Positions 2,538 to 61,282 of a stretch of DNA of 64,000 nt are shown here, one piece after another. Source of the stretch: an uncultured bacterium (lineage in GTDB: Bacteria > Fermentibacterota > Fermentibacteria > Fermentibacterales > JCC-6); contig CAZKJG010000008.1 in NCBI GenBank assembly GCA_964553045.1, positions 27,465-91,464 on the forward strand, given 5' to 3'. The translations under genes and the position numbers were made by a program. How positions within the stretch are numbered: position 1 is the first letter of the stretch; every line of letters starts with the position of its first letter. The notes under the pieces were generated by a model. The model was not told where the DNA came from, did no database searches, and saw only the letters and a program-made list of their open reading frames with translations.

Positions 2538-3204
2538 GGAGCCTGCCGTCCTCCAGGCGGAGCACCCGATCGGCCCGCTGCAGTATGGCCGCAGAGTGGA
2601 CCACCGCAAGAAGCGAGAAGCCCTGCTGGGCGCGCAGGTCGTCCAGCAGATCGAAGAGCCGGCTCTCGCTCTCCTCGTCCAGGCTGGCCGAGGGCTCGTC
2701 GGCCATCAGCACCCGCGGCCTGTTCACCAGACCGCGGGCAACGGCAACCCTCTGCCGCTCTCCGCGGGACAGCAGTGCCGTGGGGGTATCGTCCAGCCTC
2801 AGTGAAAGATGTGTCAGGACCTCCCGGGCCTGCGACTCAGCCGCCTTCAGGTCCGCCCCCGAGAACACCGCCGGGAGGGTGACGTTCTCCAGGGCGGTGA
2901 GGTTGGGAAGCAGATGGAAGTCCTGAAAGACGAAACCGATGACGTTTCGTCTGATCGAGGCCAGTCCCGCCCTGTCCATGTTACCCGCGTCCCGGCCCTC
3001 GATGGTGATCCGGCCCCCATAGGCGGGATCGTGGAGCCCGATTATGCCCAGAAGCGTGCTCTTGCCCACGCCGCTGCGTCCCACGATGGCCATGAACTCC
3101 CCGGGGTGGATGTCCAGGTCGAGGCCGTCCAGCACCACCCGGTCGCCGAAGCGGCGTCCTATGCCCCGGGCCTGCAGGACCGGTTCGTCGGAGGCCTGGC
3201 TCAC
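2527..3204 (-). CDS. ABC transporter ATP-binding protein (LolD/MacB-type)
   Basis: Walker A GRSGVGKST, ABC signature LSRGERQRVAVARGL and Walker B VLMADEPSASLD are present. GTG start at 3204 overlaps the stop of the upstream lipoprotein gene (GTGA). Confidence 0.85.
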   Translation of the reverse strand: MSQASDEPVLQARGIGRRFGDRVVLDGLDLDIHPGEFMAIVGRSGVGKSTLLGIIGLHDPAYGGRITIEGRDAGNMDRAGLASIRRNVIGFVFQDFHLLPNLTALENVTLPAVFSGADLKAAESQAREVLTHLSLRLDDTPTALLSRGERQRVAVARGLVNRPRVLMADEPSASLDEESESRLFDLLDDLRAQQGFSLLAVVHSAAILQRADRVLRLEDGRLHEA

Positions 3205-4019
3205 AGGAGCCCTTCTGCCATGGTCCGGATCACGGACGGAAGGGAGTCGGCCGACAGCCCCGGGTCCTCCAGCTCGAAGCTCAGCCTCGTATGTCGGCCG
3301 CCCTGTCTGACCATCCTGGCCTCCAGGGAGATGAAGGGGTCCGTCGAAAGGTCCATCCGCAGTGCCCGGGGTCGAAGGGAGAGAAAGGAGGTTCGAAGCT
3401 CCGCCAGGCTCGGGTACCAGCGCTGCAGCGGCAGCAGCCCCAGGAAGTTGATCATGTTGCCCGGCAGCAGGAGGGAAATCTGCGCATGGCCGCCTTCGAG
3501 AGCGGCAAGGCCGGTGTCGGCGGCCAGTGAGGCCTCTTCCCCCATCTCCAGCCAGGGGCCGACGACGGCCGTCGGGGCCTTGCCCATGTACAGGCAGGTC
3601 CAGCCGTTCCGGGAGGCCACCGAGCCCAGGATGCCCCCCCGCTCGGTGAGCAGGTCGGTGCGTCCCCGCGACTCCACCGCGCGGCACTCCAGCCGGGAGC
3701 TGGCGATCCGCTCCATTCCGGCCGCATCCACGTCCCGGGTAAGGAACAGCAGCTGCGGCTTCAGGGTGGTGAAGTCGATGGATATCACGGCCGTTCCCAG
3801 GGGACCGGCGGCCAGCAGGTCTTCCAGCAGACCCCCGGGTACGCCGCTGGTCTCCTCCGGGAGCAGGGCGGAGACAAGCCCGAAGGCGTCGGGCGCTATC
3901 CTTATGTAGCAGAGGCTGTTTGCCGGGACCATGGCCAGATCGCCGCTGTCGGGCCCGCCGCCGCAGCAGGATGCGCCCAGTACGCAGGCCAGCAGCGCTG
4001 CGGCAAGTCTTCGGCTCAT
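3201..4019 (-). CDS. Hypothetical lipoprotein co-transcribed with the ABC ATPase and permease
   Basis: ATG at 4019 is preceded by GGAGGGAG. Signal peptide MSRRLAAALLACVLGASCC has a lipobox-like Cys. No recognisable catalytic motif. Confidence 0.55.
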   Translation of the reverse strand: MSRRLAAALLACVLGASCCGGGPDSGDLAMVPANSLCYIRIAPDAFGLVSALLPEETSGVPGGLLEDLLAAGPLGTAVISIDFTTLKPQLLFLTRDVDAAGMERIASSRLECRAVESRGRTDLLTERGGILGSVASRNGWTCLYMGKAPTAVVGPWLEMGEEASLAADTGLAALEGGHAQISLLLPGNMINFLGLLPLQRWYPSLAELRTSFLSLRPRALRMDLSTDPFISLEARMVRQGGRHTRLSFELEDPGLSADSLPSVIRTMAEGLL

Positions 4020-4175
4020 ATTCTTGACAGCTCCCTCCAGCAGGCTTAGCTTTCCCGCCCCGGTAAGAGTACGTCCTTGCCAGAGAGGCGTCAACGACTC
4101 GATTCAGAGCCGCTGGCGCCTTGACGATATGGGGGCCCGGGGATATTGTTGCGACTCGCGTAGAAAGCGGATGCT

Positions 4176-4251
4176 GCTGGCGTAGCTCAATTGGCAGAGC
4201 AGCTGATTTGTAATCAGCAGGTTGCGGGTTCGAGTCCCATCGCCAGCTCCA
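4176..4251 (+). tRNA. thrU: tRNA-Thr (anticodon TGT)
   Basis: Cloverleaf: acceptor GCTGGCG/CGCCAGC, D-arm GCTCAATTGGCAGAGC, anticodon loop TTTGTAA, T-loop TTCGAGT, encoded CCA. One C-A mismatch in the T-stem. Confidence 0.8.
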
Positions 4252-4272
4252 GTTCCGAAGATGACATAGACG

Positions 4273-4358
4273 GGCGAGGTTCCCGAGCGGTCAAAGGGGG
4301 CAGACTGTAAATCTGTTGGCTTAAGCCTTCGGTGGTTCGAATCCACCCCTCGCCACCA
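4273..4358 (+). tRNA. tyrU: tRNA-Tyr (anticodon GTA), class II long variable arm
   Basis: Acceptor GGCGAGG/CCTCGCC, anticodon loop CTGTAAA, long variable arm, T-arm GGTGGTTCGAATCCACC, encoded CCA. Confidence 0.9.
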
Positions 4359-4588
4359 GCTGCAAGTCGCCCGAGGCTAAGGCCTGAAATACGCCAGCGG
4401 TCCTTTCATTGCAACCCGCAAGGCCAACGCCCGGGACGATACCGATGGGCTGCGCAGAGTCCTGACGAAGAGCGAAACGCACCGCGGTGGGCGCAGGCCC
4501 TCCTGCGGTGTGCCGGATGGGCTGCGCGACGACCCGCGCGGTGCGCGGGAGGACTAAGTACGGAACCACGACCGGGGGGAAGAATGCA

Positions 4589-4975
4589 GCTTCCCCGTCC
4601 GGCAAAGTTCAGGAAGGACCCCTGCGCGGGAGAGCGGAGCACGGCGCAGGATTGGAAGTTTGACCGGGGCGGTGAGCGTAGCGTCCCCGCGAAGCGGATG
4701 CAGGTTGTATGGCGCGGGAGAGCGGAGCATTGCCACCAAAGCCAGGAGGCGGGCGGCAAGCGAAGCTTCCCCGTCCGGCATAGTCCAAGGAGGACCCCTG
4801 CGCGGGAGAGCGGAGCACAGCGCAGGATTGGAAGTTTGACCGGGGCGGTGAGCGTAGCGTCCCCGCGAAGCGGGTGAAGGTAGGATGGCGCGGGAAAGCG
4901 TAGCATTGCCACCAAAGCCAGGAGGCGGGCGGCAAGCGAAGCTTCCCCGTCCGGCATAGTCCGGCACGGAGTTCG
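4589..4975. repeat. 176-bp tandem direct repeat, 2 full copies plus a ~35-bp partial third, in the tRNA-Tyr/tRNA-Gly spacer
   Basis: GCTTCCCCGTCCGGCA recurs at 4589, 4765 and 4941 (period 176). Each unit is two related ~88-bp halves, both containing GCGCGGGAGAGCGGAGCA. Confidence 0.85.
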
Positions 4976-4976
4976 G

Positions 4977-5052
4977 GCGGGAATAGCTCAGTTGGCAGAG
5001 CATCAGCCTTCCAAGCTGAGGGTCGCGGGTTCGAATCCCGTTTCCCGCTCCA
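4977..5052 (+). tRNA. glyT: tRNA-Gly (anticodon TCC)
   Basis: Acceptor GCGGGAA/TTCCCGC, anticodon loop CTTCCAA, T-arm GCGGGTTCGAATCCCGT, CCA. Confidence 0.9.
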
Positions 5053-5090
5053 GCTCCGCCGGCAGGCAGAAGGCAGGAGAGTGGCAGCCA

Positions 5091-5166
<76 letters not shown>

Positions 5167-5208
5167 GCTTAGGCCCATTTAGCGAGGTGAAAGTCAGGAG
5201 GAGGAGCT

Positions 5209-6402
<1,194 letters not shown>

Positions 6403-6418
6403 GCCGGCTGTTTTGCGG

Positions 6419-6562
6419 GTGATAATTACGCTGGCCTGCCAGGAGTGCAGGCGAAGGAACTACACTACAACCAAGAACAGGCGTACGACGCCGGACAGGA
6501 TCGAGCTGAAGAAGTACTGCAGGTTCTGCGGCAGGCATACGCTGCACAGGGAGACGAAATAG
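6419..6562 (+). CDS. rpmG: 50S ribosomal protein L33, short zinc-ribbon form
   Basis: Below the ORF-track size cutoff. GTG start; translation [47 protein letters not shown] matches the CxxC...CxxC L33 family. Followed by GC hairpin CCGCCCCGCGCAGGCGGGGCGG at 6569-6592. Confidence 0.85.
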
Positions 6563-6606
6563 CATTGTCCGCCCCGCGCAGGCGGGGCGGGCGCGCCTTC
6601 GGCTGA

Positions 6607-6682
6607 AGGGCCGTAGCACAATTGGCAGTGCACCGGACTCCAAATCCGGCGGTTGGGGGTTCGAGTCCCTCCGGCCCTGCCA
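6607..6682 (+). tRNA. trpT: tRNA-Trp (anticodon CCA)
   Basis: Acceptor AGGGCCG/CGGCCCT, anticodon loop CTCCAAA, T-arm GGGGGTTCGAGTCCCTC, CCA. Confidence 0.9.
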
Positions 6683-6803
6683 GTCGGTGGCGTTTCGCAT
6701 AGGACCAGGTGGCGGCCGGTCCCGGCGGGCAGCCGGGCCGGTGCCTTGTTCGCTTTGCGGAAGGCGGCGGCCACCGGGGGCGCAAGCAGGGGAAGGTAGA
6801 TCG

Positions 6804-7040
6804 ATGGCAAAGAAGAAGGACTCCGGTGGAAACGCGATCGTCCGGGCGGCGAACGGGACCGTTCGGTTCCTCGGCGAGGTCAAGGCCGAGCTGACGAAGG
6901 TCGCGTGGCCCTCCAGGGACGAGGTAATAGCCTCCACCTGGGTGGTGCTGGCCGCCGTGGGAGTCGTGGGAATCTGGATCTTTGCCGCGGACAAGGCATC
7001 CTCTCTGATGATGACCGCCCTTGTCAGCCTGTTCAGCTAG
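6804..7040 (+). CDS. secE: Preprotein translocase subunit SecE
   Basis: 78 aa; MAKKKDSGGNAIVRAANGTVRFLGEVKAELTKVAWPSRDE followed by one TM helix, the canonical one-helix SecE. Confidence 0.85.
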   Translation: MAKKKDSGGNAIVRAANGTVRFLGEVKAELTKVAWPSRDEVIASTWVVLAAVGVVGIWIFAADKASSLMMTALVSLFS

Positions 7041-7062
7041 ACGGGACACAGAAGGGGAGCCA

Positions 7063-7710
7063 ATGCCAGAAGACGAGACTCTGGAGCGAGAAGAGAGCAC
7101 CGGGCAGGAAACGCCGGAAGAGGCGGCCGAAGAGGCTTCCAAAGAGGAGGCCGGGGCCGCGGAGGAAGAGGAGGACGACCGCTACCGCTGGTACGTGGTT
7201 CATTCCTTCTCCGGCTACGAGAAGCGGGTAAAGAAGTTCCTGGAGGGCAACATCGCCAGGATGTACCCCGAACGGGTCTCGGAGGTTCTCATTCCCACCG
7301 AGGAGGTGACCAGCAGGACCCGCAAGGGCCGCAAGGTCACCCGGCAGAAGAAGCTCTACCCCGGGTACGTTTTCGTGAAGCTGGATCTCACCGAGGAGAT
7401 GGTGATGGACATCCGGGCCATGAGCAACGTCAGCGGCTTCCCTCCCATGAACAAGAGCTATCCCAAGCCCCTGACCGAAGGCGAGGTCAAGAGGATCATG
7501 GGGCAGGCCGAGGGCACGGAGAAGCGGAAGGTCGTGCGGATTCCCTTCAGCGTGGGCCAGACCGTCCGTGTCACCGACGGCCCCTTCAAGAACTTCTCCG
7601 GGGTCGTGGAGTCCATAAACCCCGAGAGAGGAATGGCGAGGATCATCTTCACCATCTTCGGCCGCAAGGCACCGGTGGAGATCGATTTCTCCCAGGTAAG
7701 GCCCGTCTGA
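7063..7710 (+). CDS. nusG: Transcription termination/antitermination factor NusG with an acidic N-terminal extension
   Basis: ATG 7063 after GAAGGGGAG. About 45 aa of E/A-rich tail, then RWYVVHSFSGYEKRVKKFLE (NGN domain) and a C-terminal KOW domain (FSVGQTVRVTDGPFKNFSGVVESI). Confidence 0.9.
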   Translation: MPEDETLEREESTGQETPEEAAEEASKEEAGAAEEEEDDRYRWYVVHSFSGYEKRVKKFLEGNIARMYPERVSEVLIPTEEVTSRTRKGRKVTRQKKLYPGYVFVKLDLTEEMVMDIRAMSNVSGFPPMNKSYPKPLTEGEVKRIMGQAEGTEKRKVVRIPFSVGQTVRVTDGPFKNFSGVVESINPERGMARIIFTIFGRKAPVEIDFSQVRPV

Positions 7711-59959: not shown

Positions 59960-61282
59960 ATGGCAACGGCCAGTTGGCGCACGATCCCGGCTGCGGTTGC
60001 CCTCGTCCTGGTCGTTGCGGCCTGCGGGGGGGACGGTGCGGAGGACGGCGCGGCCACCGTAATCTTCTGGCACGCCATGGGAGGGCCGCTGGGCGAGATG
60101 CTGGAGGACACCCTGATCGCCGAGTTCAACGCCTCCCACCCCGGCATAGAGGTGCTGCCCGTCTCCATGGGCAACTACCGGGCCCTGAGCCAGAAGATCA
60201 TGGCCAGCGTAATGGCCGGAAGTCCCCCGGTGGTGGCCCAGGCCTACGAGACCTGGACCGCGCAGCTTATAGACGGCGGCGTCCTGGTGAGCTTCGACAG
60301 CCTGATGGCCTCCGATGCCTCCTTCACCGAAGAGCAGTGGGAGGACTTCTTCGAGGTCTTCCGGCGCAACAACAGCTTCGACGGCACCGTGTACAGCTTT
60401 CCCTTCAACAAGAGCGTCCCCGCCATCTACTACAACACCACCCTCTTCGACAGCCTGGGGCTGGAGCCCGCCGATACCTGGGAGGAGCAGCGGCGGCTGC
60501 TGCGCAGGCTCACCATCGACGGCAACGCCGACGGCGATTTGCGAGACGAGTCCGACGTATGGGGAACCGCCTTCTCCGTGAGCACATGGATGTTCGAGAA
60601 CCTGCTGGTGCAGGCCGGAGGGGACCTGATGGCGCCGGACTCGCAGAGCACGGCCTTTGCCGGACGCCGGGGAGTGGAGGCCCTGGAGTTCCTCTCCTCG
60701 CTGATACACGAGGACAGCGTGGCCTACCTGTCCACCGGCTACGAGCACCAGAAGGAGTTCGCCGATGGCAGGGTGGGGCTGGTGCAGGGCTCGGTGACCT
60801 CGCTGGCCTTCATGGAGAGCGACATGGCGCGGCGGGCGGAGAACGGGCTGTCGACGTTCAGGATAGGAATAGCCCCCCTGCCCGCCGGACGCAGGCGGGG
60901 AGTTATCATATCCGGCACCAACGTGGTGATATTCAGCGGCCACCCCGTGGCCCGAATAGACGCCGCCTGGGAGTTCGTGAAGTGGTTCACCGCGCCACAG
61001 CAGCAGGCCCGATGGTTCGCGGCCACCGGTTACCTGCCCGCCAGGATCAGCTCCCTTGAGGAACCCGCCGCCCGGGCCAGGATCGAGGAGTACCCGGGGC
61101 TGCGGGGGGTTCTGGGGCAGCTGGAGTACGCCACATTCGAGCCCCAGCTGAAAGCTTGGTTCGACGGCCGGGAGTTCCTCTCCGAGGCCGTCGAGATAGC
61201 GATATACGGACAGATGACACCGGAGGAGGCCCTCGGGCGGGCGGCGGAGCTCGCCGACGAGGAGATCTCCACGACGGACTGA
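59960..61282 (+). CDS. ABC transporter extracellular solute-binding lipoprotein (family-1, sugar/oligosaccharide type)
   Basis: Lipobox VVAACGG. Type-2 periplasmic-binding-fold hallmarks (...IFWHAMGG..., SFPFNKSVPAIYYN). Confidence 0.7.
   Translation: MATASWRTIPAAVALVLVVAACGGDGAEDGAATVIFWHAMGGPLGEMLEDTLIAEFNASHPGIEVLPVSMGNYRALSQKIMASVMAGSPPVVAQAYETWTAQLIDGGVLVSFDSLMASDASFTEEQWEDFFEVFRRNNSFDGTVYSFPFNKSVPAIYYNTTLFDSLGLEPADTWEEQRRLLRRLTIDGNADGDLRDESDVWGTAFSVSTWMFENLLVQAGGDLMAPDSQSTAFAGRRGVEALEFLSSLIHEDSVAYLSTGYEHQKEFADGRVGLVQGSVTSLAFMESDMARRAENGLSTFRIGIAPLPAGRRRGVIISGTNVVIFSGHPVARIDAAWEFVKWFTAPQQQARWFAATGYLPARISSLEEPAARARIEEYPGLRGVLGQLEYATFEPQLKAWFDGREFLSEAVEIAIYGQMTPEEALGRAAELADEEISTTD

Follow-up and report, generated by a model that had tools for sequence, protein, structure and literature searches.

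Why should the spacer between two tRNA genes of a bacterial operon be filled with tandem repeats, and from what might such repeats have arisen? The question is raised by a 64,000-nucleotide (nt) stretch of DNA from an uncultured bacterium of the phylum Fermentibacterota (contig CAZKJG010000008.1; hereafter the window), in which the tRNA-Tyr and tRNA-Gly genes, as called by ARAGORN, lie 618 nt apart (4359–4976). An earlier note, made from the letters alone, had described in this spacer a 176-bp tandem repeat of alternating ~88-nt halves, and had likened it to the 178-bp repeat of the Escherichia coli tyrT operon. The repeat is confirmed by Tandem Repeats Finder (TRF; 2.1 copies, 94%), as is the order thrU-tyrU-glyT-thrT-tuf of the surrounding genes by ARAGORN and the open reading frames (ORFs). 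The insertion consists of a multi-helix leader of ~170 nt followed by head-to-tail modules of ~88 nt, the last of which ends exactly at base 1 of tRNA-Gly(UCC). It is reasonably probable that this is a lineage-specific array derived from tRNA-Gly, co-transcribed with its neighbors, excised in tRNA processing, and constrained to fold.

The repeat unit and its register

TRF resolves the repetition at two periods, one of 176 bp (2.1 copies, 94% matches, without indels; 4588–4962) and one of 88 bp (3.2 copies, 63% matches; 4624–4905). The longer period is marked by AGCTTCCCCGTCCGGCA... at 4588, 4764, and 4940; the repetition reported earlier is thus real, with each of its positions (4589, 4765, and 4941) one base off. 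At the shorter period recurs an 18-mer, GCGCGGGAGAGCGGAGCA, which is exact at 4624, 4712, and 4800, has two mismatches at 4888, and occurs at no other site in 64 kb. Its chance expectation is 0.53, and none of 100 shuffles reached four matches.

The register of the array is set by a series of GCGGGA anchors at 4545, 4626, 4714, 4802, and 4890. Their intervals are 81–88 nt, and the last one, of 87 nt, stops at 4977, which is base 1 of tRNA-Gly. Because the anchor series ends on that base, the array is in register with tRNA-Gly. The same register is found in seven relatives (L001, L030, L031, L032, L033, L035, and L038), at periods of 87–94 nt. The basic unit is the ~88-nt module (87–94 nt) rather than the 176-bp repeat. 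Three module types recur, each with its own tip helix: CACGGCGC../..GGGGCGGUG in type A, UUGCC/GGCAA in type B, and CACUGC/GCAGUG in type C. The window itself reads 0-A-B-A-B, where 0 is a degenerate copy (Table 1), and its 176-bp period is probably the product of a single recent A+B duplication, seen in the window only.

Module ends and tRNA-Gly

Both ends of the module hairpin resemble tRNA-Gly. On the 5′ side, the first 16 nt, GCGGGAG-AGC-G-GAGCA, correspond to tRNA-Gly positions 1–7, 9–11, and 22–26, with U8 absent; on the 3′ side, CGUC-CCCGCUC corresponds to positions 63–74 minus U67. The two tRNA-like ends pair with each other in acceptor-stem fashion, and a single variable hairpin fills the interval between them. 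An end-anchored alignment test of modules against tRNAs, evaluated with 1000 dinucleotide shuffles, gave z-scores of 4.3–6.2 when the GCGGGAG-type tRNA-Gly of relatives was aligned with A and C modules or with the B modules of the window, a score reached by at most 1 of the 1000 shuffles. The remaining B modules matched the same tRNA more weakly (z 2.6–3.2; 5–6 shuffles per 1000). Against the clade's own GCGGGAA-type tRNA-Gly, the B-type of L001 reached z 4.7 (0 of 1000). The other four tRNAs mostly score below tRNA-Gly in this test. Judged by these alignments, the module ends appear to derive from tRNA-Gly, and the simplest origin would be a tandem duplication of the tRNA-Gly gene followed by remodelling of the tRNA body. 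The tie to tRNA-Tyr drawn in the earlier note gives way accordingly, since it is tRNA-Gly with which the array keeps register and whose ends it carries. A global alignment of the modules to each of five tRNAs was weak and was not built on; in it, C-type modules scored slightly better against tRNA-Thr(UGU), via a shared AGCTGAT.

In tRNA-Gly(UCC) itself, pair 7:66 (4983/5042 in the window) is A7-U66 in the window's clade and in the more distant relative L039, and G7-C66 in all other Fermentibacteria loci examined (L004–L024). Module position 7 is a G in A and C modules, and an A in B modules of the L001/L030/L038 type and in the window's B2.

Fold and constraint of the modules

Folded singly, 16 of 17 modules adopt the same rod architecture, the exception (L001_C2) sharing only its P1 stem. 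A module comprises an irregular rod hairpin of ~64 nt and a linker of 22–30 nt, and it is not a cloverleaf. From base to tip, the rod begins with P1 (GCGGG/CCCGC) and a single unpaired A, continues through P1b (some modules have GAGC/GC(G)UC here, and others AACC/GGUU or AAGC/GCUU), a block of G•A, Watson–Crick, and A•G pairs, and a GC/GC step, and finishes in the variable tip helix. Across the MAFFT alignment of modules, 90.9% of cells are paired, compared with 26–59% when the partners are slid. Five pairs have changed on both sides: 12–61 switches between GC and CG; 15–58 is found as AU (6), GU (5), GC (1), and UA (1); 20–53 and 23–50 alternate between CG and UA; and 11–62 has one C-G. The B and C hairpins exceed their shuffles in stability (z -2.0 to -3.6). 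The earlier suggestion of a repeated RNA structure is thus borne out to the extent that the repeat can form one, with some compensatory changes. Folding the whole 618-nt spacer was uninformative (z -0.5 on the + strand, -1.9 on the - strand).

Between L031 and L035, orthologous modules share 94% identity, versus 83% at tuf third positions, 85% in the leader, and 84% in the Gly–Thr spacer, a difference that, from small numbers, suggests constraint.

The leader

Upstream of the modules, the leader is closed by the helix AAGUCGC/GCGAC, includes hairpins such as GGGCU/AGUCC and CGCACCGC/GCGGUGUG, and carries the invariant motif GAAAUACGCCAGCGGUCC. Its pairs are 93.6% paired, compared with 30–55% when the partners are slid, and seven of them are changed on both sides, a count reached by 3 of 500 shuffles. 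No Rfam family matched it. The short repeat noticed twice in the leader is exact as the 12-mer GATGGGCTGCGC, at 4444 and 4516; the 13-mer originally given has one mismatch in its second copy. The 130-nt Tyr–Gly spacer of L039, which lacks the array, also has the leader's invariant motif UACGCCAGCG, so part of the leader is older than the array.

The leader was also considered as a set of older, decayed modules. All that was found is a match of 13–19 nt (GCGCAGCGTCCC) with an nhmmer E of 0.09 in a tiny search space, which does not support that origin. Eight viral-contig matches to a leader 18-mer all fall in one phage coding gene, their likeness is confined to the 18-mer, and they are attributed to chance. 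The leader motif TGAAATACGCCAGC (4385–4398) is complementary at 12 of 14 positions to the first 14 nt of tRNA-Thr(UGU) (4176–4189) or, equivalently, resembles the 3′ acceptor strand of that tRNA, CGCCAGC; its core, TACGCCAGCG, does not vary within the clade and recurs in the L039 spacer. The motif could be left over from the 3′ end of a tRNA-Thr, or it could serve as a pairing site.

Distribution, copy number, and turnover

Comparison of NusG-based loci puts the window among Candidatus Fermentibacteria, where it is matched best by the Fermentibacteraceae metagenome-assembled genome (MAG) L001, with 96% NusG identity, and the host is on this comparison assigned to the Candidatus Fermentibacteraceae lineage. 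Only assemblies with an EF-Tu at least 95% identical to that of the window have the long spacer; the EF-Tu of L039 is 88% identical. A look-up of the window's exact EF-Tu protein returned no record. Across 18 more distant Fermentibacteria loci, the Tyr–Gly spacer measures 35–85 nt in 16, 164 nt in L014, and 130 nt in L039, and none has modules. The 164-nt spacer of L014, an Aegiribacteria MAG (3732–3895), is AT-rich and unrelated, so the Tyr–Gly interval has expanded independently at least twice in the phylum.

Within the clade, the spacer is 817 nt in L001 (including a gap of 100 Ns), 449 in L038, 343 in L030, 512 in L031, 418 in L032 and L033, and 420 in L035. Module order differs as well: 0-A-C-(gap)-C-B-A in L001, 0-B-A in L038, 0-B in L030, C-C-C in L031, and C-C in L032, L033, and L035. 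The comparison of orthologous loci that the earlier note had proposed thus shows, in seven related assemblies, arrays of one to six or more modules, of three types and in differing order. Such differences in copy number and order among close relatives would fit a recombination-prone array, as had been surmised. L031 and L032, whose EF-Tu proteins are identical, have three and two modules, a difference of one 94-nt module that could be real or a product of short-read collapse.

Several contigs end at this locus. Those of L034, L036, and L037, of the same clade, start or end at or within the array, and the 100-N gap of L001 (3544–3643) lies inside it; two more distant relatives, L002 (1–10) and L040 (1–20), end inside tRNA-Gly. 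Because assemblies break at the array or in tRNA-Gly, module copy numbers in MAGs are unreliable at this locus.

A covariance model of the module (R1) finds modules in the Tyr–Gly spacers of the clade only, with no significant match elsewhere in the 64-kb window, in the 18 other Fermentibacteria loci, or in the E. coli loci. A weak single match at 60826–60907 (+; 15.9 bits, E about 0.1) is probably due to chance. A metagenome scan with a module pattern returned one further locus, again a Tyr–Gly spacer, and a scan of viral contigs returned none. A dispersed repeat of the repetitive extragenic palindrome (REP) or miniature inverted-repeat transposable element (MITE) kind was set aside on these grounds: the 18-mer, a 23-mer, and R1 match only the spacer within the 64-kb window and only this locus in relatives, in searches that did not include whole genomes of the clade.

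The same data bear on three other deflationary accounts. Contigs that break at an array invite the suspicion of an assembly artefact, yet the same family occupies the same locus in independent JGI, ENA, and NCBI assemblies, and the window's 176-bp copies differ at 6% of positions. Such an artefact, which the earlier note had named as a concern, therefore fails to explain that the array exists, in independent assemblies and with diverged copies; it is retained for copy number, which is uncertain in any one short-read assembly. A protein-coding gene might be proposed from the long ORFs that span the region on both strands, but these lack Pfam matches and overlap tRNA genes, module lengths of 87–94 nt are not multiples of three, and indels between modules, such as the 1-nt indel between L035_C2 and L031_C3, break the frame. 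The conserved 18-mer at fixed spacing recalls an array of clustered regularly interspaced short palindromic repeats (CRISPR). This was rejected (cas genes were not searched for), since the stretches between 18-mers are themselves repeated, at 94% between the 176-bp copies and as three types across genomes, and homology spans whole modules beyond the 18-mer. Artefact, coding gene, CRISPR-like array, and mobile repeat are, even taken together, very improbable.

A proposed tRNA-derived array and the case against it

The preferred reading, an array derived from tRNA-Gly, can be laid out as a sequence of steps. The spacer would be transcribed together with the tRNAs and tuf from a promoter upstream of tRNA-Thr(UGU). 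A single transcription unit is suggested by a single promoter-like site before the first tRNA, the sole sigma-70-like match within 3900–7100, and by the finding of no terminator-like site on the + strand through tuf. This promoter-like site is unchanged in L001 and L038, and L039 has TTGACG-17-TATTTT. The spacer RNA would then be cut out during tRNA maturation, as happens to the RtT repeats in the tyrT operon of E. coli, and at the DNA level the array would grow, shrink, and reshuffle through unequal recombination or slippage between modules. Since a module holds the two acceptor-stem strands of tRNA-Gly, selection may keep it folded on itself, avoiding mispairing with neighboring modules or with pre-tRNA-Gly. 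Such selection would explain the conserved stems without any function in trans.

A number of observations weigh against this account. Concerning descent, full-length alignment of modules to tRNA-Gly is weak (z about 0–3) and nil for A-type modules; ARAGORN, run with default settings and with -ps, -ps80, and -ps70, makes no consistent tRNA call on any module; and the Rfam tRNA model (RF00005) has no match inside the spacer at E ≤ 10. Given modules that tRNA finders miss and a weak full-length similarity, descent from a complete tRNA-Gly copy is argued from the ends and the register only. The module linkers show no similarity to the 3′ trailer of tRNA-Gly, and derivation of the linker from that trailer was rejected for this reason, despite one ungapped repeat match of 65%. 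Concerning structure, A-type hairpins are no more stable than shuffles (z -0.9), and hairpins of the minus strand fold about as well as those of the plus strand, so that assignment to the + strand rests on operon context and G•U pairs. Pair-count measures of covariation do not rise above shuffles (139–238 of 500), and the ~15 distinct sequences behind the covariation are related to one another through duplication as well as descent; for these reasons the structural evidence is moderate, not decisive. Finally, the differences in copy number could partly reflect short-read assembly collapse.

Some of these points suit a neutral account, in which the spacer is an unconstrained set of decaying tandem duplications whose apparent structure goes back to complementary acceptor-stem strands in the parent tRNA and to recent common ancestry. 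The unremarkable stability of the A-type hairpins and the pair-count measures fit it, as do the narrow distribution, the fast turnover, and the degenerate copies on the Tyr-proximal side. What it does not readily accommodate is that three module types with unrelated tips each have a helix in the same place (TTGCC/GGCAA, CACUGC/GCAGUG, and the A-type helix), that pair 12–61 flips between GC and CG and 15–58 has four pair types, and that orthologous modules are better conserved than tuf third positions and the adjoining spacers. Neutral decay is for these reasons rather unlikely.

On an account in trans, the leader and modules would form a modular noncoding RNA that, once released from the precursor, uses stable acceptor-stem mimics, or purine-rich GGA-bearing loops and linkers, to titrate RNase P, glycyl-tRNA synthetase (GlyRS), EF-Tu, or a CsrA-like protein, and so tune the output of tRNA and EF-Tu. 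Stems kept through compensatory changes while tips and linkers vary, a conserved leader with seven compensatory pairs, and a purine-rich + strand (GC skew +0.25, AT skew +0.3) would all fit such an RNA. GGA likewise exceeds expectation in the window (24 against 13.6), in L031, and in L035, but not in L001, L038, or L030, and the repeated units inflate these counts. Further, the arrays have anything from one module to six or more, in no conserved order, the rest of the phylum lacks the element, and no conserved CCA-like 3′ end follows the stem. A trans-acting role of this sort is unlikely. A more specific version is doubtful to a slightly greater degree: that the leader and acceptor-mimic hairpins constitute a new modular noncoding RNA family, which persists after release and titrates a factor that binds tRNA (RNase P, GlyRS, the CCA-adding enzyme, or EF-Tu, itself encoded just downstream), with module copy number an evolvable control over how much tRNA and EF-Tu is expressed.

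Operon context and neighboring features

The features of the locus are collected in Table 1. After tuf come rpmG, secE, and nusG, by the ORF list. The longest ORF for nusG (7021–7710, +) encodes 229 aa from a TTG start, with an acidic N-terminus, and overlaps secE; relatives' nusG genes are called at 210–215 aa, so the true start in the window is probably further downstream. Upstream of the operon, an ORF on the - strand (3201–4094; 297 aa) has no Pfam match. Relatives keep its neighborhood, with a product of 272–281 aa, also without a Pfam family, beside ABC_tran and FtsX genes. The other spacers of the operon differ in conservation. The Gly–Thr spacer (5053–5090) is 38 nt long and 51–65% identical to those of close relatives (52–61 nt), in which a hairpin, CTCCGCCGG-NNNN-CCGGCGG, occurs that the window lacks; the Thr–tuf spacer is 82–98% identical to close relatives.

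Table 1. Coordinates in the window of the tRNA genes, the spacer elements, and tuf
Feature	Position	Strand	Basis
Promoter-like site TTGACG-17-TATTGT, likely operon promoter	4121..4149	+	Sigma-70-like match; putative function
tRNA-Thr(UGU)	4176..4251	+	ARAGORN; Rfam tRNA 66.9 bits
tRNA-Tyr(GUA)	4273..4358	+	ARAGORN; Rfam tRNA 55.5 bits
Structured leader domain, ~170 nt, conserved	4364..4532	+	RNAalifold on 6 relatives, 34 pairs
Degenerate module 0, 81 nt	4545..4625	+	GCGGGA anchor 4545; weak R1 match 26.1 bits, E 1e-4
Module A1, 88 nt; hairpin 4626–4690 plus linker	4626..4713	+	R1 72.6 bits; hairpin z -0.9
Module B1, 88 nt; hairpin 4714–4774 plus linker	4714..4801	+	R1 66.6 bits; hairpin z -3.3
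Module A2, 88 nt, recent A1 copy	4802..4889	+	TRF period 176, 94%; R1 73.1 bits
Module B2, 87 nt, recent B1 copy, abutting tRNA-Gly	4890..4976	+	R1 75.6 bits; hairpin z -3.5
tRNA-Gly(UCC)	4977..5052	+	ARAGORN; occupies next-module start position; apparent source of module ends
tRNA-Thr(GGU)	5091..5166	+	ARAGORN
tuf (EF-Tu), same operon, downstream	5209..6402	+	ORF; homologues named elongation factor Tu, 95–97% identity
tRNA-Trp	6607–6682		ARAGORN

Implications

Should the tRNA-derived reading be correct, the locus would add an independent second example, after tyrT/RtT of E. coli, of a tandem array that a tRNA operon has grown out of one of its own tRNA genes. Here both tRNA ends would have been kept as a stem, and the tRNA body reduced by remodelling to a simple hairpin, in which compensatory change is still seen. 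Such an array would amount to a natural experiment in the decay or re-use of a tRNA gene, and in how far a precursor tolerates internal copies of the acceptor-stem strands. Leader and modules together are a candidate new structured RNA for an uncultured phylum. At a practical level, the array explains why assemblies of the clade break at this locus and cautions against reading copy number from MAGs. The general importance is limited by the confinement of the element to a few closely related MAGs, and its role in the cell is a proposal.

Comparison with known systems

The Rfam search that the earlier note had suggested identified no family: with all 4227 families at E ≤ 10, the spacers of the window and of L031 gave only the flanking tRNAs and noise. 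In the literature searched for tandem repeats in tRNA operons or for pseudo-tRNAs, the only relevant statement was a general one that counts tRNA operons among periodic repeats. Three known kinds of element nonetheless invite comparison. tRNA pseudogenes and remnants share with the modules ends that match tRNA-Gly (positions 1–11 and 63–74) and pair like an acceptor stem. In contrast to pseudogenes, the modules have no cloverleaf, D loop, anticodon arm, or T arm and go undetected by ARAGORN and the Rfam tRNA model; their middle is one hairpin that differs by type with its pairing kept. The sponge RNAs CsrB and RsmZ resemble the array in being purine-rich series of tandem hairpins with GGA in some loops and linkers. 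They differ from it in that each is a stand-alone gene with a terminator, whereas the array lies within a tRNA operon, and in that GGA enrichment of the array varies among relatives.

The E. coli tyrT operon is the third, and its repeats resemble the array in kind. In the MG1655 tyrT–tyrV locus, a 178-bp repeat (3.1 copies, 95%) overlaps 19 nt of the 3′ end of tyrV, and rttR and tpr are annotated there. In a 2024 preprint, the rtT RNA is assigned a role in processing of the tyrT transcript and possibly in the stringent response, its mode of action being unknown (10.1101/2024.07.17.603846). Homology between the two arrays might be suggested by their adjoining a tRNA-Tyr gene, by periods of 176 and 178 bp, and by both running into the end of a tRNA gene. 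RtT (RF00391; gathering score 45 bits), however, has no match in the window (3800–7500) or in L031 (3200–3760) even at E ≤ 10, compared with four matches of 133–138 bits at the E. coli tyrT locus used as a positive control, and R1 in turn has no significant match in the E. coli loci. With no detectable homology in either direction, and a true unit of 88 nt tied to tRNA-Gly, membership in the RtT family is extremely improbable. The likeness in period that had seemed striking is a coincidence: units are 87–94 nt, the 176-bp super-period is confined to the window, and relatives read C-C-C, A-C..C-B-A, and 0-B-A. The parallel in location is loose, in that the 178-bp repeats follow tyrT–tyrV and the 116-nt tyrU–glyT spacer of E. 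coli has no RtT match.

Further differences concern architecture and range. The array lies upstream of tRNA-Gly, in register with its 5′ end, whereas the E. coli array lies downstream of its tRNA; the parent tRNA is Gly, not Tyr, and each module retains both tRNA ends as a stem. The array has no conserved small ORF comparable to tpr and is restricted to one genus-level clade of uncultured Fermentibacteria. By these comparisons, the two arrays are analogous, not homologous. The analogy is one of kind and not of arrangement: in both, tandem repeats within a tRNA operon run into the end of a tRNA gene, and both presumably arose by unequal recombination of tRNA-plus-spacer duplicates and are released as spacer RNA in tRNA processing.

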